A DNA stretch of 64,000 bases from Psammoneis japonica (taxonomy: Eukaryota), in contig QPGO01000001.1 of assembly GCA_008632985.1 (NCBI GenBank), positions 714,404 through 778,403 of the forward strand, in the 5' to 3' direction. The position numbers and the translations under genes are program-made. Positions 1-63,049 of this stretch are shown in pieces. Within the stretch, counting starts at the first letter, position 1, and each line of letters opens with the position of its first letter. The notes below the pieces were generated by a model that was not told the DNA's origin, made no database searches, and worked only from the letters and a program-made list of their open reading frames with translations.

Positions 1-1976
1 TTGCAAGGAGCTGTGACAACGGTGCCAAGCTGTGGAAAAATGATGTGGGGCAATTTTGTGCTTTTCTCATGGAGTGCAAAATGGAAAAGGATGGCAAGCA
101 GAAAGGCACCCACTGGAAGCCCAGATTGCAGGCTCAGTGCCACTCTGGTGTTTGCACGGTTCTCAAACAACGCAAGTTTCCAGCAGGAGTGCTGTGCAAG
201 AAAAGCAAGCATGACGAGCTCAACAAATCATTGAAAATGTGGGCCAGAATGGCTGCAATTGAGCATGGGGACTCTCCAGAGGATTCTACCGTGGGCCTGC
301 ATTGAGACCTTTTGGAAGCTGTCAATCACATCCTCATGAAGGAGGGTCGCTGCTGTGACCGTGCCATCACCACCACGGTTTGTCATGCCGTTGGACAAAC
401 AGCTGAAGCAGGCACGTGGGTGTGGGAGGTGACAAAATGGAACCCACAGCAAGAGCAACTGGAAAGCAACTGGCGAGAAACAAAGACATCAAAGAATGCA
501 TTCATGACTTGGCACATCGATGCAAACAATTTCTTGGTTTGCCTGTGCCACGCTCTTGCAGCATGCATTGTCACAGTCAGTGGGAAGCTAGAAACGACCC
601 CAGCAGATGATGACAGCACGGCAAACTTTGTGTTTCCCGAAATCAAAGACTTGGCCAGTGGTGGCACCGCTGCAAAGGTTTCACGCATCCTTGAAAGTGC
701 ACAGGACAAGGTCAGTGGATTGATGAAGGAGCACACGAGCCACAGCTTTTGGGTGGGCTCTGCGGACGACATGGTTTTCCATGGTTTTTTAAATGCAGTG
801 GCCTCTGTTGCTGGAGGCAACTGGGATTTCAAGGGGGACTCAGCTGTCTTTGGCTGCTGCACAATGAAACTTGTTGCAGCAATGGCGGGAAAAAGTTTGA
901 GCCAATGGGCTGACCCAGGACAAGACGTCTACGTTCCCAAGCCAAACGCCATTCTCACTCCCAAGAACTCTGATCTGACAAACAATTGGATGTTCTCCCT
1001 GTTCTCAACTGTTGGGATTCGTGCCCTTTCACCAAGTGGTCACTTGAATGACTTTCGTCCAGCGATGCTTGCGATGTTGCTCATGCACCACGAGGAAGTT
1101 GCAGAGACATGTGGATGCCAGGACCAGCTTGTTCCTCAACTGATGGACTCTGCAAAGGTGCTGCACGTCGACAGCAACAAGCTTGTAGAGTGGGGAAAGA
1201 AGATCAAGGAGGATTTTGTTGCAAACAATGCTGGCAACTTCTGAAAGAGCACGTGCACCTCTGTGGAAGAGAGACAACAAATCCAGATTGACACATGGAC
1301 CAAGGGACTCAGGGACGTCAAGGAGATGCAGAGGAACACACTCAGCAAGGTGAAGAGTCTTAAAACCACCATCAGACATCTCACAGACTACATCATGTCT
1401 CTCAACCTTGCTCAATTGTTGTCACCATCGTCGCCCAAGAAGAGACAGCGAATGAATTCAGATGACTCTGCAGATGACAGTGAAATGCAGGCTGAGGTTC
1501 AAGCAGCCACCGTGAGTGCAAATGAGTTGTTGATGCACACTCAGAGGACTCAACCAGTGCAGGCATTCTCAAGCAACAAGCATCTTTGAGAAACATCCCT
1601 GCACATTTTGCTGAAGACAACAGTTGAGTGCAGGACTGCATGGCAATTGACGTCTGTGCACAACCCATTTGGTGCTGCCATTGAGATTGCCAGCTCAAAG
1701 GGAATGTCGTGAAGGTGCTGGACGACATCCAATCAAGAAGAGCGTGCATGTCTGGATGGAACTGACTGCCCCAATGACAAGAGTGGCAAAAATTACACCG
1801 CATGGCCAGGATGCGCATGTGATGTTTTGAAGTCTGTGGTGCTCAAGTGCATTTTCCATTTGGTGGAAGAGTGCAATGAGATGGTGCCACAGTGCAACAA
1901 ACTTGTCAAGCCAAAGAAACAAAATGCTGCTTGAAGCTTTGCAGGTGGTGCAAAAGACAATCAATGGGTGATCCAA
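1..1976 (+). mobile_element. Decayed tyrosine-recombinase (Crypton-like) element, 5' part outside window
   Basis: ORF 312-1244 contains HTSHSFWVGSA (HxxR box with CGG->TGG at 750-752), then GNWDFKGDSAVFGCC, where the W...Y motif would sit with Tyr replaced by Cys. Broken reading frames continue to ~1976. The region is TpA-depleted. Confidence 0.45.
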
Positions 1977-4539
1977 GGAAAGTCAAAGGCAGACAACAGA
2001 GTGGGAGCCATTTGCTCCATCTGGGAGAAGCTCAGCAGCAGCAACAACAACGACAATGACAACCTTGAATGAATGATGATGTTCAAGGCACAGCCAACAA
2101 CAACTGCAATGTTTGCAGCAACAGCAAAAAAACAACAGCACCCGCAACAGGGGCAGCAGCAATGCCCCAGCAGAACCACTCACCCCCAACGGTGCCGCCA
2201 TCAGCAGCCTTGCCCTCTAACAGTCCACCACTGGTGGCACCATGGCACTGCCCCCAACAGCACCGTGACCATCGGCACCGCCAACAGCACTGCCCGCCCC
2301 TGACTGTGCTGCCACTGGCAGCCCAGCAGTCTGCCACTGGTGGCACTGCAGCACTGCCCCCAATGACAGCACCACCATCGGCACCGCTGACAGCAACACT
2401 GACCCCAGTGCTGCTTGTGCCACTGTTCATTGTCGCACAGCATGATTTTGTTGACTCGTCATGCCCATGCTTTCTGAAGGCGACTCAATCAAAAGAATGT
2501 TCACAGTGGCAACAGTCACAGCAGTGGCAGCAGCAGCAGACTCAACAAGAGTCAATCATCACAGCAGAACAAACAAACTTGCAAACAAGTGATGAGACTT
2601 GGGAGGTCATCGGCATTCTGACCACTCCTTCAAAGAAGATGGTCAGGCACCCCCGCATTGGAGGTGCCCAATCACCACCCACCCCCCAGGATGCACAATC
2701 CCTTTGCTCTCATCAAACAATTCATGCAGAAGGTGGGATTGCCGAGGAGCCACAGCTGCAGGTGGCATCCTCGGCAGACACTCAAGCCATTTGGAGATGT
2801 GAGCATCCTCGTCTGCCCATGTTTTGGGACTTTTCCAAAAGCAGCAGATTGCAGAGTGCAACAAAGAACACTCCTTCTCATTGAGCCGCCCAGCATGACA
2901 TTGGTGCTGCACCTGCTGAAGCCGGCCCCCCGCATGTGACATGTGATTTAGCATCACATGTCATCCCACTCATTGCCAATGCTCATCAGGCACTCTGCAC
3001 TCGACAACCCTGACACCCACCAATTCCATCAATCTCTTGGCATCACAAAGCATCTCAATTTTCTGCAAGAGAGCAAACAAAGTTTAAAGCAAAACAAAAG
3101 ATTGAGAAAATGAATGCTGGCCATTGAACAGATCACACCGGCATCATGCCGGCATCATTTTTGCATGCACCCATTGATTGTTCCGGCAAATTCAACAAGA
3201 TGGTGTGGAAAATGAAGCAGTGTGAGGACACACATTGCGACAGAGAATGCCTTGATTTGCTTTTTTGACACAAATTGGGGTGCGACAGCAGCAACGCCAA
3301 TCGCGTCAACACAAACAAAACAACACTCATTTTTTTTTCCGGAGCCTGTGGTCCACCGACTCGAACGTTTTTCTTGGAACACACCTGCACAGCCCTGTCA
3401 AAATGTGGATTGAGACCACATGAAGTCATCCACAGAACACAGTGTCATGGCTCTGTGCATGTTGCGGTTGTTCAGACACACAGCACCGGTGACATGTGAT
3501 GTCATGTCTCATTGTGCAGCAGCCGCACAGCACACGCATTGGAAGCGTTGGTGGTTGGTGCATGTGAGGTGATTGTTGTGGTGTCGTGTCCCTCAGTTTT
3601 GAATGTGTCGTCCTTCGGTGTTTGTGTGTCTGTGTGTGGCAGTTGTGCACTTGTCATGTCCCTCTGACATTGGGTGTGCTGCCCCTCTGATTCGACACAT
3701 TGCAGAAATGATCTCACGCGCGTGGTTGTTGGACTGTGTGGGCGTGTGTGCATGTGTGAGGTGCAAGCAGAACATGCGTAGAATCACCACTGAGTGAGTT
3801 GACAGGCGGTGGATTTTTGCCGGCACACAATCTACAGGCTCTGCAGGGAAGATAAATTCAGGTTGGTTCCTGAGGCTTTTAAATGTCATTGAATTTTCTC
3901 ATGCCTTTAATTTGTGCACACACACCAATTCAAAAGTCTGACAGAACACCCCGAAAGAACTCTGGAATCTGTGTGAAAAAAATTCCATTTGACGGTCTGA
4001 ACAGGGTTGTCACGAAGTGCTTCTCAAAATGTCTTCCAATTGAACACAGCAAAATGTCTGCCATTGGCAAAACAGAGTCACTGTGAGCAAAAAAGGTCCC
4101 TGTCCTTCGCGCACAATGACAGCGGAATGATGATGCACAACAACGCCATGGCAAGCAACGCGAACCCGTTCACTTGTCTGCGCACTTCCTCTGGTGAGCG
4201 ACAATTTTCCATGGTGAAACCAATGGGAATCTTTTGAAAATGACCCATGACGTGCAACCCATAAATCAGTTGAGGACGCCTGTGGAATCTGCACGTTTCT
4301 GCACTGAAACTGTCATGTTCACACAATTTGTGCAAAAACAGACTTGACTTTTGTCGGGTCAGGCGCATTTTTGCAAATGTGTTGAAGAAAAATGCACCTG
4401 ATTAGAAAACAGTCAAATCCATTTTTCGCGAAGTTAAAATTCACTGAGGACAGACAGACAGACTTGTCTTTGTGATGTCCCACACGATTTCCACGCAATG
4501 ACTCTGCAGCGCGTGTGATGCAGCACCGCTTCTGCACGC

Positions 4540-5990
4540 AAGCAGTCTCGGCAGGAAAAGCATCCACTGCCCACAACCCAACATCGTCAACCATCAAAAC
4601 ACATTCCAACATGGAACCGCTGCCGCCGCAGCAACGATGAGACATGTCGCTTGTGCCGTCAACTGCAACTTCGTGTGCGACGACACTGTGTCATGGACCC
4701 TCCTCCACCACATCCAAGTGTCCACTCAATTGGTGCATTGGTGCAGGTGGCGCCGGAACACCGCACGGGATGACCCGACAGTGAAGGTGGAATCGGCCAC
4801 GTCACGGAATTCAATGCTGCCAATGGCCGAGAGCATGTGTGGTGTGCAATCAACAGCAGTCTCAGTTTTGATTTTGTTCCAGGGACACTCACCCCGGCTT
4901 CATTGGCTGCAAGTGCTCGTTGGAGATCACCAAATGAAACTCGACGGCCATTGACATTGACAACAGAACAACAATTTTCAGAGAGGTGGCCGCACAAGGT
5001 CGATTGTGCTTGTGCCGGTGGAAAGGTGAAGGCAAAGAAGGACTCGCATTGCCGTGCACACAGAGCTGATGAAATGTTCCATTGTCCAAAGGTTGCAGAG
5101 GACTTGTTGCGTCGTAAAGGCAAGGAGTGTTTTCAGAATTGGGAGGTTGCTGGATCGAATTTGGGGACAGAACGAAATCTGAAATTTGCACAGTTGGATT
5201 GCTTCCGCAACATTCTGTTGGCAAAGTTGGGAGCAGTTGCTCAGAGGGCAGAAGAAAACGGCATGGAAAAACGAGCACATCTTTGGTGCCAGTGGGACAA
5301 CACAACACCACACATTGACAAGGTTCTCGTGGCCGGCATTGATCGTGAATTCTCTTGACGCTGTTGGGAGCTTGCACCACAACCTCCAAACTCCCCACTC
5401 ACCAACGTTGAGGATGTGCGCTTCTTTCCGGCAATGGCCAAGAGGGTCACTGAAGACCAAGGCCTTGAAAATGGCGGTCGATGTTTGCAGGGGGGGCAAC
5501 TGTGGGCATCCGTTTGTCGCGTTTATGATCGCTGTCCCAAGGGAACAATCGCCCGGTCGTTTGTGCACCACAGTCAAGTGGTGAACGCTGTTTTTCAGTG
5601 TGATGGGAGGGATGATTTTGCAAAGGATTTGCGGTTGCTTCACTGTGGAATTCGGAACTTTTTTCAGTGTGTTTGTGACTCAGAAGAGACGCAGAATCCC
5701 ACCGGAGTGGAGGTGATTGAGCACCTTAATCCGGTGGAACAGAATCTGCGGCACCCGACGCCGGATGTCATTGGGGACGGGTGCAATCCGGCAGACTTCT
5801 TGAGTGAGAACGAGCTTTCAATGTTGGTGAACAATGCAGACCACTCATGTGAGGATGCTGAAGTGCATCTCATGGCGGAGCTAGAACAGAATCGGGAGCT
5901 GTTCGATGCCGAGGCGCACCTGGAGCAGCGCTGTTTTTTGGAAGGTGCTGTCTCTAGAGAGTTGACAGCGTGCACTTGGAACCAGCACTG
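4540..5990 (+). mobile_element. Decayed Tc1/mariner (DD39D-like) transposase
   Basis: QWDNTTPH (~5290-5313) and QPPNSPLTNVEDVRFFPAM (~5379-5437) match the Q.DNA.PH...QPPNSPDLNVLDLGFF signature of plant/stramenopile mariner-like transposases. Frameshifted; TIRs not identified. Confidence 0.7.
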
Positions 5991-6566
5991 GAGTGTCTGT
6001 GTCATCCTGCTGTTGTGTCAAATTGGTGTTTTATTCCGTAGTCTGGCCAAAAGGAGCAATTCAATGGCAAACTCTAGAAAGTTTTGGTGGTGGCGCGAAA
6101 GGTGGCGCGAAACGGCGCGTGAACAAAAAACATGTGGAAGCAGTGCCACGAGGTGTTTCCTCGTGGACAATTGTCGCTTGCCGGAGGAAGTGCCAGCTGG
6201 TGTATTTCCAGATAAGATCAAAGCCATTGGACAACATTTATGTGCTACATTCCTGGGTCAAGTTGGGTTTCTTCTCGTTGCTTGTTGCCGTGTCACTTTA
6301 CAACGTCTTGACCCACGCCGTGTTTTTTGCTTTGGCTGCTTCTCTGCTCGATCCGTCCGCGCCGCACCACGCCGAACAGCTTTTCCTGCAGGGTATGGCT
6401 AGTTGCTCATCACATCGAAACCAAACGTGCGCGACCAACTAGCCCTACCGCTCACACGCCACACCCGAAGATATAATATTTTTTGTTGCAATCAATCAGC
6501 GTAAGCTTATACAGTAAACAGTATATTGCTTTCATAACCACAGTCGGTACGAACGGCGCAACAACA

Positions 6567-7784
6567 ATGGCGAACAATGATGAAAGGGCACTCCTCAATT
6601 ATGTGCGCCAAAGAGACTGGACGAGAGCCATTGAATTGGTTGATGCAACAGGCTCCCAGGAAGAGCTTCGGAGACTCGCAACGGCAAGCGACCCTCAGAC
6701 CGGATGCGCACCAATTGACTTTGGCTGCGTCAACGTATCCCCAAGGGCGGAGCGTTTCGTTGCTGCTCTGTTGAGCAGAATGCCGTCCATCGCAAGCGTT
6801 CGCAATGCGAATGCTGAGATTCCGTTGATTCATGCGATTCGTAGAAGCTCGGTGGCTGTTGTTCGAATGTTGCTGGAAGCAATGCTCCAGTCCGGTTTGC
6901 AGACTGAGAATGGGCCAGATGCAACAAAGCTTGTTACGTGCAGATCTATTAACCCACACACCGGCGCGGCCTCCAAATGCAAGTTGAATGCTTTGGCACT
7001 GTTGTGCTCGTGCACTCAAAATCGCAAGAAAATGAGACAAGCATGCCGTCGCATCGAAACTGGGGAAAGTACTCTTGCAAGCATTGCAGCAAATGCCCTC
7101 GGTGATGAGAGTCGCGACTTGAACAATGATTTTTTCGAGAGGCTGACGCTTGTGCTAAAAGCGTTTTACCACAGGTCGATTGCAGACACTTTTTTGTCTG
7201 ACGGAAAGGCATTCAGACTGTTGCACGCGTGTTGTGGGATCGAACACTGTCCACCAAGTCTACTACAACTTGCAATTGTAGGAAATCGTGATCAAATGAA
7301 AGAGATGGACGAGGATGGCAACATGCCCATCCATGTTGCTGCATCTGCTTCTTTCGTCAAGCACACTTGTGAAAGTCCTTTGTGTTGTTGTTCCACTTTT
7401 AAGATGAATGACGCGGCCCTTGCAACAAGGGCGGCACTGCGATGTGGTACTCTGAAAGCAACGATGCAGACACTAGTGAGAGTAAAGCCTGATGTTGCTA
7501 AGGAATCAAACCGAGATGGCAAGCTGCCTTTGCACTTAGCAATCGAAAGCGGCCGAGAATGGGATGAGGGCGTTGACACTCTGGTCAACGCTCATCCGGC
7601 TTTGCTTACAGTCCAAGACCAGAACGGACTCTTTCCATTCATGCTTGCCGCTACTGAAAATACGTCACCCTTGACGGTTGTATACAAGCTCTTCCGCATG
7701 AACCCTGAACCCAAAATCTATGACACTAGCGTCGCCACAGTGAAAGAAGGCGTTGCTCCTCCACCTCTCAAACGGTTAAAATGA
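6567..7784 (+). CDS. Ankyrin-repeat-like protein
   Basis: Open 405-codon frame from ATG 6567. Motifs DEDGNMPIHVAA, NRDGKLPLHLAIESG, DQNGLFPFMLAA and LTVVYKLFRMNP; basic C-terminus PPPLKRLK. Normal dinucleotide content. Confidence 0.85.
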   Translation: MANNDERALLNYVRQRDWTRAIELVDATGSQEELRRLATASDPQTGCAPIDFGCVNVSPRAERFVAALLSRMPSIASVRNANAEIPLIHAIRRSSVAVVRMLLEAMLQSGLQTENGPDATKLVTCRSINPHTGAASKCKLNALALLCSCTQNRKKMRQACRRIETGESTLASIAANALGDESRDLNNDFFERLTLVLKAFYHRSIADTFLSDGKAFRLLHACCGIEHCPPSLLQLAIVGNRDQMKEMDEDGNMPIHVAASASFVKHTCESPLCCCSTFKMNDAALATRAALRCGTLKATMQTLVRVKPDVAKESNRDGKLPLHLAIESGREWDEGVDTLVNAHPALLTVQDQNGLFPFMLAATENTSPLTVVYKLFRMNPEPKIYDTSVATVKEGVAPPPLKRLK

Positions 7785-8702
7785 CACAGTCCTTGATTTC
7801 GACGGTTGTCGTGAAGGTCTCATTGCAGTGTCCGTACAATTGCAGGGCAAATCTCACGATACTATTGTGTGCCTGGTGACTGTTTTGGATTAGAATAGTT
7901 TGGATGTCGATGAGATCTGGGACATCTGTTGAATACGCTCTCAGGGTTGTACCTGCTCTCTCTTTTAGTCAGTATGACATTGCCTTGGCTGCTGCTTCTT
8001 CTGCGGACAGGGACAAATGATAGTCGCAAACGCAACATATTCCTTGAGTATATGGATATCTAAGGATTGGGTTGGCAATCGTATTTTGAGTTTCCTCTTC
8101 ATGAATTCGTCATGGCTCATATTTGTAACTGTCCATTTTGGAGTGCGGTAGTTGTATTCTGGTTTCAGCTTGCAGCCCATCATTATCTATCCTTGTCATG
8201 GTAGCCACAATCTTTCTTCTCGGCCCGTGCTGGTTCAACTACTTTACCTACCGAGTTTGCCAAGTAATCGGCTTCGTTCCTTCGAGTGGCATACAATATA
8301 AGCCCACTGTAATTTGAGGAGTCTTCATTGGTGTTTACATTTCACAAGGAAAATGAGATGAAAGAGCCATCAACGGTCGTTTTGAGCTCGCTGCATGTTC
8401 CTACAATATCCACGTCCCGGGTACTATGACAAACCTGGATGAAGTCTCCCTTTCGTTCTTTCTTTTTTTTTTTTGCACTCAAGTAGTGAGCGACGTGAAA
8501 CCAGAACAAGTAGCTATTGACTGTATCAATGAACTTTTCCGCGCAAATTAAGGAGCCCAAAGCCTGCAACACTGGCTCTGTTCCTTTCGAAATGGATTGA
8601 GTTTGAATGTCTAAAATGATTTGAGATAATTTATATCTATACACAGAGCGTATTGAGTGAGAAGAGGGTCCTCGTATATACTCTACAACTTCACAATCTT
8701 CT

Positions 8703-8745
8703 GTAGCTACTCTCTACTCTAGCTACTAGAGAGTAGAGTAGCTAC
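8703..8745. repeat. Imperfect palindrome built from CTA/TAG units
   Basis: GTAGCTACTCTCTACTCTAG-CTA-CTAGAGAGTAGAGTAGCTAC; the arms are near reverse complements. Lies ~20 bp upstream of ATG 8767. Confidence 0.6.
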
Positions 8746-8909
8746 CGGTAGAGTAGAGAGAGGGCAATGGCTGTAAGGCGGGTCGTCGCATTTCCACCAT
8801 CACCCACGACTGACGCCGCGCTTTACAACCTCCTCGTAGAGAAAGCAAATACTGCATTGACAATCTGCATAGAAAAGTGAACTACTTTTACTACCGCGAC
8901 ACTTTTACA

Positions 8910-9782
8910 GAATTGAACAAAATAGAGAAAGCAAAATTGGCAACCATGATTGCAGCGGAAAAGCATGTCTTGGAGCAACCGGACCAGGACAAAGTCAGAA
9001 TACTCGTAATTTGAATGGGAGATCCGAAAGCACAAGCAGCCCTGTTTGAAGGGATACGACAACGGTATGGACGGTTCGAGAGAGTCGAATCAACTTCAGC
9101 CTCTATTACCAAATATAGGTACTTGTACATGATTGATGGCGTTGAGCTTGAGTTTCTCGACGTGTCTCGTTTGTGTGCAAGTCAATCGAACGGCGACTGG
9201 ACCAAGTATCTAGCAAACAGGGACGCGGCCTTGTTCATTGCAGACTTAGCCGACTATCATGAATATTGTGATTCCTGCAAAGAGTGCAATGATAAAAAGC
9301 CAGCAAAAAAGAATCGAACGGGGCGCGCCTTGGAGAGTTGGGCGAGACTGTGCAATTCAACAGAAGCAAAAGGGATTTCCAAAATCCTCATACTGAATCA
9401 AAAGGAGGCGTTTGCGGAAAAGATACTGTCGACTGACATTCAAGATCAGGGACCATTCAGGGACTTTGCAGGGAAACCAAAAAACTTTGAACAGGGAGTC
9501 CGGTACTTCGTCAAAAAGTTCAAAGACTGATGTGAAGACTGCCAACGTTCCAACTTGTTCATTCGTGTGACTTCTCCGCACGACAGCGCCAACTCGGAAT
9601 TCATACTTGAATGTATCGGAGCCATCATCATTATTGAAAATTTACAAAGATCTGGGTTGCTGGATGGTTCAGCAGACACTGCGTCTGTTGCGCTCAGAGT
9701 CAAGAACTGGCTTCGAAAGGCTGAACATCGAATGATGCATCGAGCTTTCGTCACGCGTTCTTTTCCTTCAGTAGCGCGATAG
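8910..9782 (+). pseudogene. Divergent heterotrimeric G-protein alpha-like sequence with two in-frame TGA stops
   Basis: KVRILVI*MG, LEFLDV..W..Y, ALFIADLADYHE, KNR..AL, SKILILNQKEAFAEKI, VRYFVKKF and LFIRVTSPHDSANSEFILECIGAIIIIENLQRSG occur in the G-alpha motif order. Stops at 9012-9014 and 9528-9530. No helical domain. Confidence 0.7.
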
Positions 9783-10679
9783 TTTATACTTCTACCAACA
9801 AAATACATTTCGATACCCGAGCCAACGCAGAAGTTTCCTGAAAAGACAACAGGATGGAAGAAATAATGTGAGAGAAAGGACTTTGCTGTTCTGGTGCACC
9901 GGTTGATCAACAAAAGATGTTTCCACCCATCAGAGAGAAAGTATGTTCTTTTCATCGTAATCCACCAAGTCCAAAAACTTGTACCACGTATCCAACTCCC
10001 TGTGCAAAGGTTTTTGTCTTCGTCATGTGGGCTGGTGCGTCAGTACAACTCGCGAGAACAACGACTATACGCACAACTTACAAAGTGATTTCATGATCTC
10101 CCTGTATGGTACACTCGCAGGGAGAACAAAACCTTTAGCGATGAGATGAAAGGATATGACAAGCAACTGGTGAACCTCACTGTATCTTGTCTATCCGTTC
10201 AGCGTAAAATACCTCCTTAGGTATCCATCAAACGCGTACCTATATCTCGAAGTTTCTCCTGGAACATGGGTAGCGCCCGCACGGACGCCCCTCAAGCCTC
10301 TCGTGTCTTTCAGCAGAGCGGTTCGATTGCCTTTTCGGACCCACAAATCACCGTCATGTCTGACTGCGTTGGCAGCAGCAGAAAGAAGCCCAGCCATCCA
10401 TCTGCTGCGGCAGTTGGCGCCGCCATGGTTTAGTTTTTCAGAATGAGATGCGGCATGAAACAGGTGGAAATCAAAAGATTCCTGATTCCACCTGCTCCGT
10501 TCGCCCGACCCATGACTGGATGATCGCGGGTGACAAACAAAAACAAGAATCAATCATCTCAAAGCAAGGATCGTAGCGCGAACCCCAACCCAACCTGGCA
10601 GCAAGAAGAAAAAGTGTTGCACACAGTGTAGCAAACGTGAACTTCATCACCGACGTAATGCAACATTTTATGAAAATGA

Positions 10680-50410: not shown

Positions 50411-50479
50411 GCGCACTTGCTGGCTCTATCTTATCTGGCTGGCTGCGCTCATCGGTTCGGTCTGTCCATCACCTGCGAT

Positions 50480-52640
50480 CCTGTACAAAAACCTCACCTC
50501 CCTCGCTCTCGTGCTAAAAAGATTTCTCCCACACTCGCTCCCTCCACCCCACCAATCCACCAATGCAACACAGCACAACTCAACGCACTTGTGCCATCCC
50601 ATGTATTTCTCTTCCTTGAACTAAAATCAACTTCTTCAACGAACGCTCTCGAGACACATGTGTGTCGACAGCAAGCAGCAGCCAGTGCCTCCTGAGAGAC
50701 GACTCCCCAGAGCTCCACCACCTCCCACCAATTTTTGATCTTCTCTGTGGTGCATCCAACATGTGTTGACACTGTGGCTCAAGCAGTGCCTGGTGCTCCT
50801 TCCTTTAACCTGAAGGCTTCTGTGCCAAGGGTGCCCTGCATTGTCGCGTGCCCCCGTCCCCACCAGCGTCGTTCTCAAACAACGCTGCATCATGCCGCCG
50901 AACTCCAATGGTGCCTCTCTTCATCCAACATCACATCCACTGCCTCTTTCATCAATGACACCAGTGCATGGCTTCCACACACAAGCTGTCATGGTTTCAT
51001 GAAGAGTGTGCTGTGTGCCTCACCAGCGTGGTGTCTGTCTGAGCCGCGACAAAACTGCCTTCCTCACACCCACCACTGGCACATCTCCTCTTCCCAATCT
51101 CCCTCCAGCCAGTGCCATGTCCCTGTGTGCCATGCCATCTCCTTCCTTGGCCGCTCTGACAACCCAGTTTTCTCACCCAAAATCTCCACTGGCCACTGAG
51201 TTGTTCAGCCTGTTGGCAGCATTGACTTTGCGCGAACCTTCCTTGAGAAGAAAGCCCCCACCCTCCACACCAACCTTGACTGCCTGCACAATGTCCAAAC
51301 CAAAAGCTCCCTGTGCTGTGCCTGTGTCAGACCTGTGCAACATCTTCTGCACTGCATCTTCTTTTGTCTCTGACATCCATGGCAATTTTGACCCCCTCTC
51401 ACAACCCAGCTCCTGCCACTGCCTGGACCTCACCCTTTTCTGACAAGGCACCCAAAGTTGCTGTCATGCATTTCCCCACCACCTTGCCACCTGCTCTCAA
51501 CCCCCTCCACATCCACACCACTCCCGTTTCTTGTTGCCCAGCTCACCCACTCCCATTGCCACACAACACATGTTGTTGTCTCCTCTTCCAGCAATGCTTT
51601 TCTGCTTTTGACCTTCCATGCCAGACCCCCGCTCACCTGGGCCACCTGACAGCAATCCCTGCAGCCACACCAAGCACCCTGAAACTGTGGCACCACTCTT
51701 CTGTCCTGGCTTGACCCGCCAGCCCCCCCTCCCTTGCTGCCCCAGCATGGAATCTTTTCCTTGCAAGAGCCCATCACATGCACTTTGCTGCACTTGCCAT
51801 TTCAAACAACAACAGCTCTGCTGCCTCTGCCTTCTCACCGGCCATCACAAATTGCTGCTGTCATCTTGTCAATTTCATCTTCTTTTGCCAGGCTCCCACT
51901 CCACTCACTGGCCCACTCCATCCTCAGCCAGTGCCTCCCTCCCATCTTTAGATTGATGCTCCAGCACAAAAACTCCACACTCCAATGTCCGCTGACCAAG
52001 CAGTGTCAATCTCCTGTCCTTCTTGCACCTGTGCTGCTGGTCACTGTGGCAACCACCATGCCTTTTGTTGCCGCTCCCTGGGACACCAGACTGCCTCATC
52101 TCCAACACAATGCAAGATGGCCTCATCTCACCATTCTGCAAACAACATGCCCTCTTTGTGGCCTTTGCACTGACTCCTCTGCAATTCACTGTGAACCAAC
52201 CAACTTTCTGCTGTGCCCCATTGACCACTCAAATGCCCTGCCAATGTGGGGGTCAAACTCACTCCTGCCTCCTCCTCCTCCACCACCCCTTTCTCACAAC
52301 TGCCTTGGCACTGGCATCGCTGTTCTCAAAACCTCCTCTGCTTCCAGCTCCTGGCTTGCATGCCCCTGCACAAGACCCCACAACCAAGGCACGACACATG
52401 ACACCAAATCAGGCAGACACATCTTGGGATGTTTCAACAATTTGATGTGTTCCACCAACAACTTCCATTCGAGTTGCACAACAATTCCATGTGCCTGAAT
52501 GGCATTGTCCTCTGTTGTGAGAGCTTCAAATTTTTGCAAGTTCCCTCCTCGGGTGGATCTTTGCTCAACATTGCTGCAACCACACACATTTGCTGTTTGG
52601 CAACAGCCTTTTATTGGAGGCAATTTGAAAATGACTAGAT
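50480..52640 (+). mobile_element. Strongly decayed non-LTR retrotransposon (possibly RLE/CRE-like)
   Basis: PIFDLLCG...W.SF...EGF, then FINDT (YxDD-like) and a CPSC...HHAFCC zinc-finger-like segment. Many frameshifts; TpA-depleted. Confidence 0.4.
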
Positions 52641-52804
52641 GACATTTGCAACTCTGTAGAGCAGAGCATGAGAAAGAGCATGTGTGACAACAACAGCATG
52701 CGTGGCAGCAGCAGTCGCAGCGTACAATGAAATATTAGACTCACAAGACGGATAATAATCTAAACACAGCAGCCATTGTTGTTGTTGTTGTTGTGTTGGA
52801 TTTT

Positions 52805-54120
52805 TCAGCGAGGCGATGCTAATTCGTGATTGGAAGACTCAAAAAGGAGAGATCGACAGACTTTTTTGATTTTCGGACGAAAGCGACAAGAACCCCATGA
52901 CAATGCATACGCGGATCCGCACTCGTCGCCATAGTCTTTGCCCCGGCACGCGCCAACTCCAACGACGCTTCCGTCGGCCGACAAGGACACGGAACTTCCA
53001 AAAAGATCATATTCATCCTCGCCGTTCAAAGGATCTCCAACTTGCTTCCATTCATCTGCATTGCTGTCGTGCAGATAGATTCGAACTTGACCCACATTGT
53101 ACTCACAACTTCCAACCGCCAAGACTTTTCCATTTCCACTCAACGACACTGAGTTTCCAAAATCATGACGCGACTGTTGCGTCAAGAGAGTTTGGCCACG
53201 TTGCTTCCATGTCATAGTCGAGTGGTCATACGAATACACCAAAACCCTCTCGTTTCTACCTGCACCAGTGGCCACGATCAAACCGCTGTCGTCAAGAGAA
53301 ACATAAGTCCCAAAGCGTCCACTCTTAACTTGACCATTGATTGGATTGCCCAACAGATTCCATTTTGACGAGGCTGAATTGTATTCATGCACCGACACTT
53401 GACCCGCATTGCTTCCACCCAAATCATTTAAATTTGCTCCAATGCCAACAATGGTTCCCTGCACATTCAAGGAAATAGAAACACCAAAGTGATCATCATT
53501 AGCTTGGCCAATGAGTGTTTGTCCGAGTTGGTTCCAGGATGAGGTGCCGCGGTCGTACTGAAACAATCGAACTGATCCAGAATGCTTGCCGTTTTCCGTA
53601 TTATCCCAATAAGCTCCCACGGCAAGAATGTCTCCCGCATCCGAGAGCGACACGGAATGACCAAATAAATCACCAGCGTTTCGTCCAAGAATGTTGCTGC
53701 CGAGTTGGACCCAACGATCCGACACTGAGTTGTATTCAAACACACCAACGTGACCAGCATCCGATCCGCCACTGTCATTCGCATCCGCTCCAACTGCAAG
53801 AATCGTACCGTCGCCATTTAACGAAACAGACTCTCCAAAACCGCCGCCGCCGGCTTGTCCAATCAATTCTTGGCCAATCTGCATCCATTGTTGGGCAGCG
53901 GGATTGTAACGTTGCACAACGACATAGCCGGGATTGTAAGGTTGCGGTGCTCCAATAGCCATGACACTGCCATCACGAGATAAGGAGACGGATTCGCCAA
54001 AATTATCATTTTCCGCTTCACCATGCAATGCTTGACCAATGTCATTCCACATTTCGTTTCACGGTAAACTACCACCAGAGTGGGATTGGGTGTTGGAGGT
54101 TGGAGCTGGTGATGGAGTGG
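52805..54120 (-). pseudogene. FG-GAP-like beta-propeller copy 4, truncated at both ends
   Basis: Propeller ORF 52805-54052 is open. In-frame TGA at 54059-61 separates it from a TPSPAPT stalk that is cut at ~54120. The family ending SAYAFTVND* is replaced after SAYA by unrelated sequence. No signal or TM segment. Confidence 0.75.
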
Positions 54121-56212
54121 GACGCGTTTAGGTATGGATGGAGTGTCGGTCGACGGTGGCGACGCGGATCTTTTATGATCTATGATCTCTGCGGGCGGTG
54201 TGACGGCGTTGGGGGACGTCTTCGGAAGTGAGACTGTCGAAGAAAGTTACGTAGAATTTGTACCAGAACAGTCTGTCAATCAGTGCGATTGGGTATTTGG
54301 GACCTCTGGACAGATCCTACGTGTTTTCTTTTGCGTACAAGTTGTGCTGGGAAAACCCCCAAACGCACTGGCGATTAGACTGCCTTCGACGATCTCACTT
54401 CCAAAGACGCCCCCCGCCCCCCAGCGTTGGAGACGCTTTTGGTTGATGATTCAAGCCATCTCAAAATGCTTTTCCCAAAAAGGTCGAAAAATTAGCAAAA
54501 TTCGCACTTCGCCTGCCTGCCTGCACGCACACACTGTGCGAGGTTGATGTCATGCTGATGCAACAGCACAAGCCAAAAAACTTGCACAAACAAACAACAA
54601 CGAGCAAAGGCAGGAGTGAGCACCATGACACACTTTTAAATGAGATGATCCTCAATGTCTTTGAAGGTGTTTGCTGCATCCAACAAGTCTCCTGAATGCT
54701 GCTTCTCCATCTCAAGCTGTGCAAACCCACAAAAGACGCTGCATGCCGCAGCGTCTTTCCTGAGACAACGACAATTGCGGCACTGCTCTTTTTGTTTGAT
54801 GACTTCCATGCTTGGTGCAGGCACTGCATCTCTTGGAAACAAAATCCATTTGATGACATTTGTTTCCCCTGCATCATTGTTGAGATGTGGCCACAATGGA
54901 GTGGCGCACTTTCAAAAATTCGGTGTGCACACCTGATCTGCACAAAATGTGCGTGCGTAAAAATGTGCTGCAAAATTCGTAGAGATGTTTATTTGAATTC
55001 ACTTCACACACAAACATCACGGCAACAACGCCGCGACATCGGCAATGGACGCACACAACAACGACAGCGGACTGGGAGGTTGTGATGCACCGAGACAACA
55101 ACTGACATGACAAGAAATGAGATGTCAATGTCAAATGACAATGATCGAGTTGTTTTGGGAGCTGGTTGAGCCATTGGTGATGAAGGGTTTTTGGCACGCA
55201 CAACTTGGTGCTGAAATCACGCAGAGGTTTTGGCCGCGGTGGGACTGTTGTTTTTCACTTTTTTTGGGGTGTGTTTTGTGTTTTCTCGGTCGATCGCATT
55301 GATGAAGCACTGAAGTGAGCACGCGACAACAGATTTTGACGAAAAGTTGGATTTTCATTCATTGTGGAGGATTGGCACGGGGTTTTTAACACGGTGAAGC
55401 ACGGGGGGATGATTTTTTCACCAGATTTGCAAGATCCTGCATCCCATCCAATTCGCGTGCGCAACATTGGTGGATTGATGCATTTTTTACACGCAAGAAG
55501 CGCAATGACGTCGACATGCCCGACATGACAGACTTCCCATGCTGTTGTTGCAATGAAGTGAAATCTTGTTGTGTTCGGTGCGCAGAGTCCAGTGCCATTG
55601 CATTTGTCCGCATGTAGACGAGTGCTGCGCACCGCAATTTTGGAAAGCACGCCACTCCATGGCCTTGGCTCTTTGCCAGCCCCCAGCCACAGATGGCAGC
55701 TTGACTTGCGAGATCCACAAAAGGGCGCCAAGAGAGGGCAGGTGAGGTGGGACAACTCTCATCACAAATGCATTCCATGGCATGTTCTTCCACAGTTCAG
55801 AAACATCAAGATGCTCAAAATGGAGCACGTGCCTTGCTGGTGAAGGGGCATCTTGGACAACTCCTGCTTGAGACAGTCCACAGCAGTCTTGTCCTTGTCA
55901 GAGACACATGTGTGTGTGAACCTGACACACATCTTGACAGCAGCATCTGGTCCCCATGCCATGACAAGAAGTGCACTCCATTCTTGCATGATTGTGGGTG
56001 CAATCTTTGAGACATTGGTGAATGAACACACTGTCCAAGAAACAAAATGCAGCTGGCTGTTGTCCAATGCCAAACTTGTGCATGCTGTCATCCCAAACTG
56101 CTCTGCAGCAAACAATGTTGTGATGCACATGCTCAGCCACCTCAAAGTTGGCCACTTGTTGCATTCAAGCTGATGCCAACTGGCCACAGCACTGGCAACA
56201 ACCAAACATGTT

Positions 56213-56214
56213 GG

Positions 56215-56255
<41 letters not shown>

Positions 56256-56256
56256 G
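56213..56256. repeat. (GTT)n microsatellite
   Basis: Directly visible. Confidence 0.95.
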
Positions 56257-57738
56257 ATTCATGTTTTTGCCACATTGTGTGTTGTGTCTGTCTGTGTGTC
56301 CCCCCCCCCTGCCCTGACCCCGACCGGACCAGAGACAGATGTGCAAGACAAAGTCGGGGTTTGGGGTTGACCATTTTCAAATGTCCAAATTTGCCAATGG
56401 TCTTTGGGTGCAAAACAGCATCCAATGACTTTTGAAAGCTTCACAAACACCACAAAACATGCCAAATTTTTGGTGCCTTGGTCATTGTTTGGTTGGGATG
56501 CCATTTGCCCCTGGCCAATTGATTGGTTCTTTTTTTTCATTGCCAGTTGCTTTTGTTTTTTCATTGTTCACCCAAAATCATTTTCCATTGAGATGATGCC
56601 TTTTGGGGGTTTGTGTGATTTTTGCACTCATGGTTGCATTCAAAACGGGTGGGATCACATGCAAATAACTCACCCCCTTGTTTCTAAGACCAACAAGGAA
56701 AATGACACTCACAATTCAAGCCCAGATTGTTGTCATGTTGTTAAAAATTAATGTCTGATGATTGCCCCATCTTCAGCTGCAATGCCTTGCACAGTCATTT
56801 GCAGCAGGAGCCTGAGCAAGCCTTTTTGGAGGAGCCCTCTTGTGTGCCTGAAGCAACCAGCCATGGAAGAGACATGCCCTTCATTTTCCTGCCATCAAGC
56901 TTCTTCCTAAGATGAAGTCCCTTTCTCTTGTTGTCTCTGTGTTTAAAGTTGTTGACAACCAGGAGACTCTGAGCTGTCCTCCCCTGGAGCTTGTGCACAC
57001 ACTGTCACACAAAACTGGGAACTGAATCATCTGCATCCTTTGGCTGATTTTTGGAGTTCTCTTGTCAGTGAAACCCATCAGAGGAGCAAGAAAGTTGACA
57101 ACACATGTCTCTGTCCTTTGAGCCACATGAAACAGACCCCACCGCCTTTTCCTCAAGACAATGGACTCAAATTGTGAAACTGTGATGGTGACTGCCGCAT
57201 GCTTGTTTTTGGGATGTTGTCCAAAATACAGCTGCATGGTTGCCATGGTTTGGAGATGACTCAATGACACCCTCTTCTCATTGCTGGCACTCTCATGTGC
57301 ATGGCGTTGCCCCTGGTGTGTGTGTGGCCTTGGGAATGGCACTAGAAGAGATGCAGGAAGAAGAAGATGTTGGAAAGGATGACAGGAAAAAGGCAGAAGA
57401 CTTGGTCAAGAGTTTGGGGTAATCAAAGCACTGGTCACAAGCATGTGGTGTCGACAAAGTGAGCTTGAAACTTGCAATGAATAGACTGCGAGAGGCGTCG
57501 GGGACGCTAACTGAATCAGCCTAATGAGCTTAACCCATTGAAAAGAAGTATCACCATGAGACCTTTAGTAATTCAACACCACATGTCTAACACTAGACCG
57601 GAAATAGATCATCGGGAGCTTATTGGCTTGGTTTCAAATTGCTGTCTGCTACGCTATGTGCTTTCACTACTGTACCAAATCGTTTATCTCTACTAGTCGG
57701 CAATACCCCGTTGCCCTCCCCACGTCCTCTTTGCCCTC

Positions 57739-59374: not shown

Positions 59375-60024
59375 AGCAAGAGGAACCTACAGTTAGTTAG
59401 CACAGTGTGTGCTTTGCGCAGAATTTGCGTGGCCCAGACATCTGACATGTTTCCACAACAAAATGCCGGTCTTTGTCTGCTGCACAGTGAGGATCTGACA
59501 CCATCTCATCACAAACTCTCAAAGAGCCCACCCTTTGTTTTGAGAGCTTGTCTCAAGATGCCACCAGTGCATCAACAGCTCTCAAATCATTGGCCATGTC
59601 ACAATTTCTCCAAGTTGAAAATGTGATCCACCAACATGCTGCAAAACCAAGCAAAGCCCTTTGGTCAAGAAGGTTGACATCATCTCAAATGATGGCAACT
59701 GCACTCCTGAAATCAACACAGTTGAGAGTGGGCTTCTGGCGCAGAAGCTCATTTGTTGCACTTTGCAACTTTCCCTTCACTGAAGATGTGCACACCGTTG
59801 CTGCTCTCTGACACATGTTGTCTCGTTTTCACCATTTTTGCACACTTCTCTCACCTTGTTGTTTGTTTGTGACACTCCTTTTGTCATGAAAGAACATGAG
59901 ATCTGTGACAGTCATCACAAATGGGGTGGGACTGTGGCCTGCATGTCTCAGCTTGTGGGCTGCTTGCACCCAAGTGTCACCCCAAGAACCTGGTGCTCAA
60001 GTGCTTGCCAGCCACTGAGATGAC

Positions 60025-61341
60025 GATGTGTTTTCATCCCAGGTGAGAAACTTTTGGACACATCACGAGGTTTTCTATGTGTTTCTACATGAGACGTACA
60101 TTTAGTGCCAAAAATCTCAGTAAAAAACGAGCTCCATGACAGCAAAAATGTGTTTTTCCATGTCTCGAACCACAAACCACAATTCGCGCAAACCGAAAAT
60201 GGCGCCATGCCGTCGCCATGAACTCGTCCATTCTTGCGCCAACGGATGTTGTGACTGAGAAGGCAAGAATGCCGAGACAGGTCAACAAAACAACGCTCAA
60301 TGCGATGATGTGGTTGAAAATTTGATCTTTGTTTTTTGTTGTGCCTCATGGATGGCCTTTTGACTCATGATGTTTTTGATGCCTCTTTCTCTCTTCCTCA
60401 GCTTGCGAAGTGGGATTCTCATCAACGCGCTGCTCCATCCACTTGACACCGGATGCTGACAACGAAGAATGTTTCTATGACACGTTGCTGTGATTCTCGT
60501 GATGCATCGTCCGCACTTTGAGTCGTCATGGACGACGCTTTTGGGTCGTGCGACAACATCAGATTTCGCTGCCGACAAGAGAATCGTTGTGTGTTCGGTT
60601 TTGAGGGTGTGTGAGGATAAAGAATCTCAGATGCAAGTGTGACAGTTTCATTGTTGTAAAGTAGAACAACACCACTGGCAACATCTCAGTGTTGCAGCCA
60701 TTTTATTTTATTCTAAGATAGAACCAGTCATTTTGAGCGGTGAAATTTTGTCAATGTTTCATCTTTAACTCTGCTTGGGCATGTCAAATCACACAACAAC
60801 TGGACACACATTGAACTTTGACGCCACCATTTCAATCCCATTGTTTTGTTCACTCAAGCACCCCACACAGGTCAACAAATCAGTCGATCTTTGAAATGGC
60901 CGATCGTGCAAAAAAATCACATGCGAAGTCAGTTCCCCCGATTTTTCTTGTGCAAATGACAGAGTTAGAACGCCATTCTTTTTTGGCATGAGCTCTTCAT
61001 GCAATGAACAATGCGTGCATTCTTTCAAAGCAGTCAGATTCAGTGAAAGAAACAGTAGAACAGTCTCTCAAATGCACCAGAGTGACAACAACAAGCAGAC
61101 AGCTGTCAGCTTCACTCCAAAAAATGCCGCTTTCGAGACAGCGCTTTTCTTGTGCGCACCCTTCAACCAATGAGAATGACGGCTGGCTTTTCAAAATGAA
61201 CATGTCTGTGGAAAGAAGAAATGAAAAATCGGGGGAAAGTCCAGTCAGATTTGCTCGCACAAAAAGCACGGCGACGGAAAAGGGACAGACAAAATGCCTC
61301 ACCTCCACACGCGCGTTTCTCACCTGGGATGAAAACACATC
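60025..61341. mobile_element. Non-autonomous TIR DNA transposon, 1.3 kb
   Basis: Perfect 27-bp TIR GATGTGTTTTCATCCCAGGTGAGAAAC; 4-bp TSD TGAC (60021-24, 61342-45). Confidence 0.9.
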
Positions 61342-61529
61342 TGACATGGAGCTTGTGCTGCTGTTGTTTTGTTGTGCTGTGCAGGGACCAATCACCCAAG
61401 CTGGTGAAATCTTGATCCCCCCAACAACAACATGCAAACAGATGCTCTTGAGACAGTCTTGGGCTGACCCTTCTCAATGATTGCAGGAAAAGTCTCTGGC
61501 ATCTTGCAAGCTCACTCAGCAGTTCTTGG

Positions 61530-61925
61530 GACGCGTTCCAGCCCTAGGTGGGAGCTCGTAGTACTGACGTGTGACACAAATAATTTTTATCATCCGTCGT
61601 ATGTTTTGCACGTAGATTTCTACGTGTGATATTTAAAAAGAATTGTCCAGACTCGCTGTTTTGCGAAGCCCCAGACGTTTTATATAACGAGTTTATAGAA
61701 ACAATAATGCGCCAGTTACATTCTTCAATGTCTGAAGAATGTAACTGGCTAAGTAAAAAATGATGTACTTCAATCATGGGCGAGTTTGTGCGTTCGCAAA
61801 ATTGCCTCATTTTCTGTTGGCGATCATTGACATTTTAATTACCGTATAATTTTACTACGGAGCTCGCACGTAGAAGTCTACGGGCCCAATGTCACACGGA
61901 TTCCCACCTACGTCTGGAACGCGTC
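61530..61925 (-). mobile_element. Young MITE, GACGCGTT-TIR family
   Basis: TIRs GACGCGTTCCAG(CCC/ACG)TAGGTGGGA; 4-bp TSD TTGG; right end is the reverse complement of the 13091 MITE left end; TpA- and CpG-rich interior. Confidence 0.92.
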
Positions 61926-63049
61926 TTGGGTTGTGCAGGCCTTGTGTGCAATTGAGGCAGCATGAAGCATCACCAGCTGTCATGTGCTGCCATCCACAAA
62001 TTCTTTTCAGCTTGCAGAAATGCAATGGTTGCTGAGCTGGGTTGTGGGCTGGCATTGGTGGCAGCTGGGGCAGCTGCACCCCCTGCATTTTGAGTGTGCA
62101 AAAAGCAAGCAGCATGTCTTCCTGTTGCTTTTTCATGATCACATTGTGTGCGCGCCATTGACATTTCACAAGGTTTCAGTTTTCATTGCACACATGCATT
62201 GTCCACATGACCCAATGTGACATGACAAGCACTGTCATGGTCAGTGCTGACATGGGGTGCATGATCTCTTTGTGCTGCACAGTTGTTCACAAACGGCTCC
62301 CTTGTTCACAAGATGCACCTGTTTGCCCCAATGGTGTGAGGATCAAAATGGCCATGTGATGCAATCATTTAAATGCCTGAACAATGATGTTTGCACTCAG
62401 TGATTTCAAAATTGCTTGAGCACTGGCACCTCCAAGTCAACTTTGACATGGAAATGGCACCCCCCAGGTGCATTTTTTCTTGTGCTCCATTTCAGCGACA
62501 AATGCCAAGGAACACATCAGAGCAGCCAACACTGAAAAAATTGCAAATGAGTGAGCATCAAACTCAAGCTGACTCCAGCAGAAGCAGCTTGCCACTCATT
62601 GAGCTCAGGCATGATCTGTGCTCAAAGATGTTTGCTGGTCATCACTTGCTTGTGGTGGAGCACGGCATTGCAACCTGCTCAAAAATCGAAAGGAGCAATG
62701 TGGCAGTTGCCATGCTCTCATGTCATGCCACAACACAGCTCTGGCAAAATGGGTGAAATGCCCTGCAGCCACATGCACTGGAACAAAAGAAGCAAAATCA
62801 TGGCATCATGGTGCTGCTGCTTTCAAGAAGTGAGCTTGGGATGCGCACGGCACTGACTCACAGCACGTCGCCAAAATCAAAGCACATCACCCCGAAGTCG
62901 ATTCTGCACATTCTGCTCGGTAAATTATCTAAACGAAAAAAAGAACAAGCCGTGACACAATGCACGCAACGCACGGTCTCAATGAAATGAAAATGAACTG
63001 CAAGAATGCAGTGTGATAGATGCAAAAGGATGAAATGAAAAATAAATTT

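Follow-up and report, generated by a model that had tools for sequence, protein, structure and literature searches.

Probable TpA-directed transition hypermutation of discrete domains in a 64-kb stretch of diatom DNA

A 64,000-nt stretch of the Psammoneis japonica genome (contig QPGO01000001.1, positions 714,404 to 778,403; hereafter the window) consists of domains from which the dinucleotide TpA has almost vanished and of gene islands in which it persists. The data below make it likely that the depleted domains, presumed to be silent, underwent hypermutation at the DNA level through transitions specific for TpA, with TAY (Y, pyrimidine) as the target and the chromatin state as the trigger. 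Adenine deamination is the probable chemistry, and the effect would resemble that of fungal repeat-induced point mutation (RIP).

Over the whole window, the observed/expected ratio (o/e) is 0.19 for TpA, 0.55 for CpG, 1.63 for TpG and 1.58 for CpA. TpA occurs 812 times against 4169 expected from base composition, and its o/e is 0.15 or less in 39 of the 64 1-kb bins. Segmentation with 400-bp windows and a TpA o/e threshold of 0.2 resolved ten depleted blocks, totalling 43.6 kb (68% of the window) and containing 182 TpA. TA values range between 0.02 and 0.11 across these blocks; taken together, they have o/e values of 0.07 for TA, 0.39 for CG, 1.78 for TG and 1.71 for CA, as against 0.46, 0.92, 1.31 and 1.29, respectively, in the gene islands that make up the remaining 20.4 kb. 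AA, TT and AT are not reduced in depleted DNA (AA 1.23 and TT 1.24, versus 1.18 and 1.15 in the islands). In 1-kb bins, TA varies inversely with TG/CA (Spearman -0.88). Block edges, for example those at 29308, 47138/47365 and 59398, are abrupt, the transition being completed within about 100-200 bp. The longest stretch devoid of TpA measures 1494 bp (45644-47138); at the TpA density of the gene islands, the probability of 1 kb free of TpA is ~4e-14. TATA is found 31 times in normal DNA and 0 times in depleted DNA. In six-frame translation, depleted and normal DNA specify 0.12% and 1.8% Tyr, 6.1% and 3.9% Cys, and 5.1% and 3.7% His, respectively; depletion is similar in every frame and in non-coding DNA. 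Sliding-window ratios and segmentation thus bear out the near-absence of TpA, the low CpG and the flood of TG/CA reported in a preliminary description of this DNA, as well as its statement that bases 1-120 lack TpA (the first one is at base 287). That description also credited the neighbouring genes with ordinary TpA levels. These are indeed higher than in the blocks, but at 0.46 (with TG/CA at ~1.3) they fall below most comparison loci (0.5-0.95), which could mean that the mutator leaks weakly across the whole genome or that the genes have an ordinary coding bias. As a side effect of the depletion, TGA accounts for 89% of the stop triplets in the blocks (2084 of 2341) and, since TAA and TAG stops are removed, open reading frames (ORFs) are inflated in dead DNA: those of at least 150 amino acids number 13.7 per 10 kb in depleted DNA versus 8.4 in normal DNA.

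The ancestral state of depleted DNA was examined in a family of five dispersed FG-GAP_2 paralogs (A to E), 72-80% identical, that lie within the 64 kb. One of them is in depleted DNA:

14641..16760, + strand: FG-GAP_2 paralog A, TA o/e 0.11, with one in-frame stop (15661-15663)

TpA was considered conserved in the family at sites where at least three of the other four copies have TA. Paralog A retains one of ten such sites (five changed to CA, three to TG and one to TT), whereas paralogs B to E, all in gene islands, retain 16 of 18 (Fisher p 7e-5). Along the branch leading to paralog A, 12 of 32 A:T bases within TpA underwent a transition, versus 43 of 467 other A:T bases; the corresponding figures on the B-E branches are 6 of 73 and 122 of 1805. 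Changes at TpA sites on the A branch comprise 12 transitions and 2 transversions. Paralog A has an increased number of transitions at CpG as well (27 of 121, versus 8-19 per 88-123 in the other copies). This copy carries, in addition, a 27-bp tandem repeat (15249-15473, 8.3 copies). The preliminary description mentioned "two host-type pseudogenes"; one degraded copy of host type was identified, namely paralog A. The same description had the mutator directed at repeats. This part does not hold: paralog A shares 72-80% identity with four paralogs that are spared, which argues that duplication is not the trigger, and location in a silent domain would fit better. The identity threshold of RIP lies near or above 72-80%, so this is a weak test of a duplication trigger. 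In the chlorarachniophyte Bigelowiella natans, where TpA hypermutation has been observed directly (see below), the main target is single-copy (10.64898/2026.01.13.699255).

A second line of evidence comes from the one retroelement domain recognized in the window:

19367..20164, - strand: ORF with the RNase H domain of a Ty3/Gypsy-type retroelement (RT_RNaseH_2 1.4e-7, RT_RNaseH 4e-6)

This ORF has no Tyr in 266 amino acids. In an alignment with the best 150 of 181 public homologs, the seven consensus-Tyr columns read C, F, C, H, C, C and H in the window (four Cys, two His, one Phe and no Tyr), and three consensus Arg have become Gln, a trace of CpG loss. The strings TDSCDC, IAHCS and QQNCS, previously pointed out as sites of Tyr replacement, are present at 19871-19975 (- strand) and do fall on these columns. 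Among the 150 homologs, 18 have at most one Tyr at the seven columns, and 12 have none in the matched stretch. The Tyr-poor homologs differ in their Cys/His patterns (for example CECHCHH, FHCCCCH, HECHCCC and CCHHWCH), which argues that each copy was converted independently. The public collection includes RNase H "proteins" without Tyr that originate from NCBI, ENA, Logan and JGI; evidently, gene callers predict proteins from depleted DNA, with the practical consequence that the products of inflated ORFs have already entered public protein collections.

Nucleotide sequences of relatives were obtained by a pattern scan of public metagenome contigs, using a three-sequence alignment as query, which yielded 79 loci of the same reverse transcriptase/RNase H lineage. 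TpA o/e is at least 0.4 in 77 of them, mostly 0.6-0.95; thus, low TpA is not intrinsic to the element. One contig (L065) contains a 5.5-kb block with TpA at 0.03-0.26 and TG/CA at 1.5-1.95, between normal flanks that carry an MsrA-like gene. The nearest Atlas clusters of this gene are mostly from Bacillariophyta (score 0.86), which is only a lead. A 98.8%-identical copy of L065 is present in a separately filed metagenome assembly (L064). The two differ at 55 positions, including eight with TA versus TG/CA, two more pairs with TG versus CA and 15 with CG versus TG/CA; the TA versus TG/CA differences arise although TpA is now rare in this DNA. Both are environmental contigs and may belong to the same species as the window. 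Another locus, L024 (1-3250), has TpA at 0.32-0.50, CpG at ~1.0 and TG (1.4-1.5) well above CA (1.1-1.3); it could show this process at an early stage, or at one with a strand bias.

Divergence at TpA is also seen between copies of repeated sequences in the window:

33405..33681, + strand: left copy of a direct repeat resembling a long terminal repeat (LTR), 93% identical to its partner
36540..36822, + strand: right copy of the LTR-like direct repeat
13087..13479: insertion of 393 bp resembling a miniature inverted-repeat transposable element (MITE), with 25-nt terminal inverted repeats (13091-13115 and 13455-13479)

The 13 substitution differences within the direct repeat pair comprise four with TA versus CA/TG, four in a block with TGTG versus CACA, three with CG versus CA/TG and two others. 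To judge from these differences, the two members diverged at TpA sites after insertion. The MITE has a word depth of 1e4-1e5 in sequencing run X1, compared with ~60 for single-copy DNA, suggesting that hundreds to thousands of copies exist. The window copy still contains TpA; at positions 13189, 13272, 13408 and 13427 it has CA or TG where TA makes up 57-93% of the depth of the other copies. One run contig joins 13086 to 13480 across the MITE and could correspond to the empty site, if nothing lies between.

Altogether, four independent polarised comparisons show TpA to be the ancestral state, a point on which the preliminary description had made its case depend. They leave little room for the idea that the depleted DNA was always poor in TpA, as a signature of foreign origin, or that selection eliminated its TpA. 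Most genomes have a mild shortage of TpA, and the gene islands themselves do not exceed 0.46; yet the polarised tests make TpA ancestral, relatives of the element have TA values of 0.5-0.95, all frames and non-coding DNA are depleted alike, and dead elements are not under such selection. We give this idea practically no weight.

TG and CA products are equally frequent. The share of neighbouring products that are of the same type is 0.502 versus 0.501 expected, and the distribution of TG and CA in 200-bp bins shows no greater over-dispersion than in genes. Being equal and randomly interspersed, the products point to single-site events on either strand; for the same reason, editing of RNA on one strand followed by reverse transcription can be ruled out, as can processive deamination of single-stranded DNA of the APOBEC/AID type. 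Strand-coordinated editing was rejected on the neighbour statistic. The polarised tests, the equal and interspersed products and the occurrence of both Cys and His in one ORF all agree with the earlier proposal that A:T to G:C changes take place at TpA on both strands. On sequence, the window thus displays nearly exclusive A:T transitions, restriction to TpA, both types of product and discrete domains beside spared genes. Photoproducts of ultraviolet (UV) light at TA, biased gene conversion and routes linked to N6-methyladenine (6mA) were set aside by reasoning: none of them would lead one to expect transitions exclusively, a strict specificity for TpA or sharp borders.

The strand data also bear on whether an ADAR-like activity edited double-stranded RNA of the elements, the changes becoming fixed in DNA once the RNA was reverse-transcribed and re-integrated. 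ADARs have a preference for A preceded by U (10.64898/2026.01.13.699255), and the affected DNA is probably mostly derived from retroelements. Equal, randomly mixed strand products speak against such a route, and so do the effects on a DNA-type MITE, a host paralog and non-coding flanks, and the divergence of the LTR-like pair at TpA after insertion. Moreover, ADARs are not known outside animals. Altogether, an RNA route seems scarcely credible.

Loss of CpG accompanies loss of TpA, the two co-varying across 1-kb bins (Spearman 0.81), as would fit a methylated, silent chromatin state. Relative to the gene islands, depleted DNA shows a combined TA and CG loss of -0.92 o/e units against a combined TG and CA gain of +0.89. 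Both deficits are therefore needed to balance the gain and, since TA to TG/CA changes are polarised as well, deamination of 5-methylcytosine (5mC) was rejected as sole cause. As proposed earlier, CpG decay is a separate, co-occurring process, and it cannot alone explain the TG/CA excess, the TA deficit being larger than the CpG deficit. The methylated-transposon type of 5mC deamination is like the present case in feeding the same TpG/CpA sink and also operates in these blocks (CG 0.39), but it cannot remove TpA, and it occurs without TpA loss in metagenomic locus L012 (1-5414), where CpG falls to 0.08-0.4 while TpA stays at ~0.5. The two processes are thus separable.

The co-variation is also what would be expected if error-prone repair by a Pol eta-like polymerase, recruited at methylated or deaminated CpG, copied A as G at WA (W, A or T), as in the second phase of somatic hypermutation. 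A>G at WA is indeed a Pol eta signature. WA includes AA, however, and neither AA nor TT is depleted in the blocks, and paralog A, like its sister copies, retains ancestral AA at 47 of 53 sites. Furthermore, the segment 4001-6000 is practically empty of TpA (0.05-0.09) with CpG near-intact (0.73-0.78), while L012 shows the opposite combination. This candidate, put forward in the preliminary description, accordingly fails, and we regard it as very improbable.

To characterize the target further, the residual TpA of depleted DNA was compared with that of the gene islands in each tetranucleotide context. Retention values are as follows:

ATAT: 0.00
ATAC/GTAT: 0.01
ATAG/CTAT: 0.06
GTAC: 0.07
ATAA/TTAT: 0.11
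CTAG: 0.11
GTAA/TTAC: 0.13
CTAC/GTAG: 0.16
CTAA/TTAG: 0.35
TTAA: 0.91

TTAA makes up 43 of the 182 TpA in depleted DNA and 22 of 630 in the gene islands (p 3e-15). The values fit an additive per-strand rate set by one flanking base, although by themselves they do not tell which flank matters; with the change written as A>G, the preference for the 3' neighbour of A falls in the order T ≥ C > G >> A. In paralog A, the TAY strand was the one edited in all four events that offered a choice between TAY and TAR (R, purine). Three further cases in the repeat pair agree with TAY, if TA is taken as ancestral. The probable target is hence 5'-TAY, changed to TGY on the edited strand (equivalent to RTA to RCA on the other), with ATAT, ATAC and GTAC going first and TTAA being spared. 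The same order is found in the depleted block of L065, where ATAT, ATAC, GTAT and GTAC account for 0 of 65 residual TpA versus 72 of 275 in the flanks. Sharing of the rule (RTAY first, TTAA spared) with an environmental contig suggests that a conserved enzyme may be at work.

We also considered that the pattern could be an artefact, produced by mis-assembly or by systematic base-calling or polishing errors at a modified base. Three sequencing runs were available, all from one sample, probably that of the assembly, with the library type not on record and none recorded as RNA; the single sample and the missing library type would suit an artefact. Eight contigs assembled from one run at ~60x word depth cover positions 16996-31302, each with 0-2 letters other than those of the window, which reproduces 14 kb. 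In run X2, the kind of which is not on record, cover is found in 12 of 30 bins, mostly gene islands. Furthermore, a comparable depleted block is present in two separately filed metagenome assemblies (the 98.8%-identical L064 and L065), and Tyr-less homologs come from four sources. This pair and these proteins together make a platform artefact unlikely. A single miscalling rule, moreover, would not give a mixture of TG and CA at former TA sites. We consider an artefact highly improbable. Among the differences listed between run contigs and the window, five are variants carried by a single ~60x contig and are the sole letter read at their position (18545, 23475, 24833, 24951 and 25763). Two of the five involve TA versus CA/TG: at the single-copy sites 23475 and 25763, the ~60x contig and the window read CA versus TA and TA versus TG, respectively. 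These differences could be allelic, or they could be recent TpA changes in the same sample.

The reading that we favour is as follows. The targets are sharply bounded, presumably silent domains, in which dead retroelements lie together with one MITE copy and one copy of a host gene. Each TpA changed independently to TpG or CpA (A:T to G:C on one strand or the other) until nearly none was left, and ordinary decay of CpG to TpG/CpA goes on separately in the same domains. The trigger would be the chromatin or silencing state of the domain rather than duplication of its sequence. Chemically, adenine would most likely be deaminated hydrolytically, and the hypoxanthine so formed would pair with C when the DNA is next replicated; the enzyme would be a deaminase of the TadA/ADAT fold, or another one acting on DNA, with a native preference for U/T before the target A. 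The outcome would be a RIP-like disabling of mobile or foreign DNA, with Tyr turned into Cys or His, and Ile (ATA) into Met or Thr. A more far-reaching version, in which diatoms run a genome defence that edits adenine in duplex DNA by reading silent chromatin and, on either strand, turning TAY into TGY until nothing of the mobile elements is left, is put forward tentatively, as a possibility to which we would give somewhat less than an even chance.

Several points weigh against the reading favoured here. TpA being its own reverse complement, A>G cannot be distinguished here from T>C on the opposite strand. No enzyme, modified base or de novo mutation rate was observed from the window sequence, and the silencing of the depleted blocks is something we infer. 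The agreement of the runs is a matter of reproducibility, not of confirmation by an independent platform. The polarised samples are small (ten conserved TpA sites, seven Tyr columns and four strand-informative events). Regarding the motif, one purine-versus-purine case disagrees with the TAY order, and the bulk gains of tetranucleotides over the gene islands are inconsistent, with ATAA, ATAG and GTAA fitting and ATAC and CTAA not; because of this inconsistency, the TAY claim draws on retention and on few polarised events. Finally, A34 is followed by G, A or C in the substrates of eukaryotic ADAT2/3, which does not match the T ≥ C > G >> A order.

The strand ambiguity leaves a place for thymine chemistry with the same genetics. 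In this scheme, a TET/JBP-type or other enzyme would modify T at TpA in silent chromatin, giving 5-hydroxymethyluracil or a base-J-like derivative, which would then mispair with G or be mis-repaired, producing T>C on either strand (RTA to RCA). All of the results fit T>C equally well, TpA being palindromic. Base J occurs on the T of TpA, on both strands of trypanosome telomere repeats, and 5-hydroxymethyluracil in dinoflagellate DNA is enriched before A. On the other hand, a Pfam scan of the 60 ORFs of at least 150 aa found no TET/JBP gene in the window, and no thymine modification is known to yield near-exclusive T>C at such efficiency. Nothing in the data favours this scheme over adenine deamination, and the preference of TadA-type enzymes for U before the target A would readily explain the motif. 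Thymine chemistry is thus rated as unlikely, though still worth bearing in mind.

Judged by its sequence signature, the process inferred for the window is of the same kind as the TpA-only hypermutation of B. natans. Mutation-accumulation lines of that alga acquired 231 mutations in two regions; 230 of them were A>G/T>C, and all of these lay on TpA and gave TpG or CpA (10.64898/2026.01.13.699255). These regions are silent integrated viruses, whose mutation rate exceeds that of the remaining genome about 1000-fold, and TpA-poor genes of B. natans are enriched in reverse-transcriptase and DDE domains (10.64898/2026.01.13.699255). An ADAT2-like DNA adenine deaminase has been proposed, the enzyme itself not being known (Mettrop et al., 10.64898/2026.01.13.699255); activity on DNA has been reported for ADAT2 of amphioxus and trypanosomes (as cited in 10.64898/2026.01.13.699255). 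Common to the two cases are near-exclusive A:T to G:C changes at TpA, the occurrence of both TpG and CpA, discrete domains and a loss of TpA with gain of CpA and TpG. The hosts differ, B. natans being a rhizarian and the host of the window a diatom-like stramenopile. So does the extent: TA o/e is 0.02-0.11 over 68% of 64 kb here, as compared with 0.45 in the nucleocytoplasmic large DNA virus (NCLDV) region of B. natans, where only 124 clusters of at least three 1-kb windows are reported (callable sequence, 85 Mb, or 90% of genome size). Unlike in B. natans, strong CpG decay runs alongside in the window, and a host gene copy and a MITE are affected too. The mutation rate was measured in B. natans, whereas the window case is known from sequence alone. 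The text of that report mentions neither a TAY/TTAA-sparing rule ("context" and "trinucleotide" have 0 matches) nor diatoms. What is new here is the saturation in a second supergroup and the TAY/TTAA-sparing rule, for a process reported once before. The preliminary description knew of no account of the phenomenon in diatoms. This stands, in that a literature search to which subscription journals were out of reach found no report of the signature in diatoms; the process itself, however, is in the 2026 chlorarachniophyte preprint (10.64898/2026.01.13.699255).

Fungal RIP, best known from Neurospora, offers both likeness and contrast. It likewise works through dinucleotide-specific transitions, leaves mobile elements riddled with missense changes and a skewed dinucleotide composition, and co-occurs with cytosine methylation. 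For a long time, no other example was known of a cell that deliberately mutates its own repeats. RIP relies on cytosine-methyltransferase-like enzymes, is premeiotic and responds to duplication; in the window, by contrast, four paralogs at 72-80% identity escaped. Its direction is also the opposite: RIP converts CpA to TpA, creating TpA and stops, while in the window TpA is lost and TAA/TAG stops vanish. RIP itself was rejected as an explanation, C>T at CpA not being found and TpA being ancestral and lost.

Among deaminases, TadA/ADAT enzymes convert A to inosine, which is read as G, at a native A34 that follows U33; this resembles the 5'-TAY deduced here. Off-target RNA edits of TadA-derived adenine base editors (ABE), and of TadA itself, centre on UACGA (PMC8052359). 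A TadA-type preference for UAC(GA) is a plausible root of the T-A-pyrimidine target. Natural TadA/ADAT act on tRNA, their activity on DNA being engineered or reported for ADAT2 of amphioxus and trypanosomes. In the window, T following the A is favoured no less than C; editing of duplex chromatin is not explained by their known activity. ADAR and APOBEC3/AID likewise represent deaminase-based restriction of mobile or viral nucleic acids, and ADAR shares the preference for U before A. ADAR, however, acts on RNA and is animal-specific, APOBEC/AID produce C>T at TC/WRC, and all leave strand-coordinated clusters, of which there are none here.

If the favoured reading is true, the process is not confined to one alga, and the greater part of the non-genic DNA in an important group of phytoplankton can be moulded by it. 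Comparative genomics could then seek the enzyme, with the TAY/TTAA-sparing rule as a biochemical fingerprint to match, and genomes with and without the signature could reveal the first natural DNA adenine deaminase devoted to genome defence. This deaminase could represent a naturally occurring editor of adenine in DNA.

The remaining features of the window are listed below.

1..5850: depleted block 1, TA 0.06, CG 0.50, TG 1.79, CA 1.71; no Pfam family in its ORFs
5851..10650, + strand: gene island, TpA o/e 0.54, with an ankyrin-repeat ORF (6477-7781) and a G-alpha exon (9015-9527)
10651..12950: depleted block 2, TA 0.10; interrupted at 11624-11700 by 77 N (assembly gap)
13551..25050: depleted block 3, TA 0.06, CG 0.40; contains the degraded FG-GAP paralog and the Ty3/Gypsy-type element
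25051..29350: gene island, TA 0.44, CG 0.86, with FG-GAP_2 paralog B (25512-27440, + strand) and a Methyltransf_22 gene (28077-29057, - strand)
29351..33150: depleted block 4, TA 0.04, CG 0.28
35051..47250: depleted block 6, TA 0.07, CG 0.32; holds the longest TpA-free run
39543..42671, - strand: possible remnant of a long interspersed nuclear element (LINE) in block 6, the basis being a weak zf-RVT match (E 0.009)
47251..50650, - strand: gene island with an 867-aa FG-GAP_2 + Laminin_G_3 ORF (47434-50034), which is paralog C (paralog span 47385-50034)
50651..52550: depleted block 7, TA 0.02, CG 0.21
52551..54450, - strand: gene island with FG-GAP_2 paralog D (52808-54058)
54451..57350: depleted block 8, TA 0.08, CG 0.40
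59551..61450: depleted block 9, TA 0.11, CG 0.62
62051..62850: depleted block 10, TA 0.02, CG 0.17
63005..64000, - strand: FG-GAP_2 paralog E, TpA retained; extends past the end of the window

Pfam scans covered 60 ORFs of at least 150 aa, 16 ORFs at E<=1 and, from the depleted blocks, 150 of the 239 ORFs that measure 75-149 aa. In depleted blocks they recognized one Ty3/Gypsy-type RNase H, the fifth FG-GAP_2 copy (paralog A) and the weak zf-RVT match (39543-40325, - strand). Positively recognized mobile DNA in the window thus amounts to one retroelement domain, one MITE and this weak match; mutated elements largely escape standard profile searches. Since Pfam gave RT_RNaseH plus the weak zf-RVT only, the Copia, LINE and recombinase labels used in the preliminary description could not be verified. 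The strings CKCGC and SCRAEACG, cited there as Copia and LINE remnants, do exist (36301-36315, + strand, and 40841-40864, - strand, respectively). A PDB sequence search with two "LINE" ORFs gave nothing meaningful, a homolog search with 40232-41086 (- strand) gave no result, and Rfam had 0 matches in the window at gathering thresholds. The closest public match of the window proteins is 65% identical and the closest named match, from Fragilaria crotonensis, 58%; Atlas neighbours are mostly Bacillariophyta. By homology, the DNA is therefore diatom-like and does not come from Bigelowiella. A 42-bp tandem repeat of 12.4 copies (35450-35970) lies inside a 626-aa ORF of no assigned family (34594-36471), which itself sits between both members of the LTR-like repeat pair.

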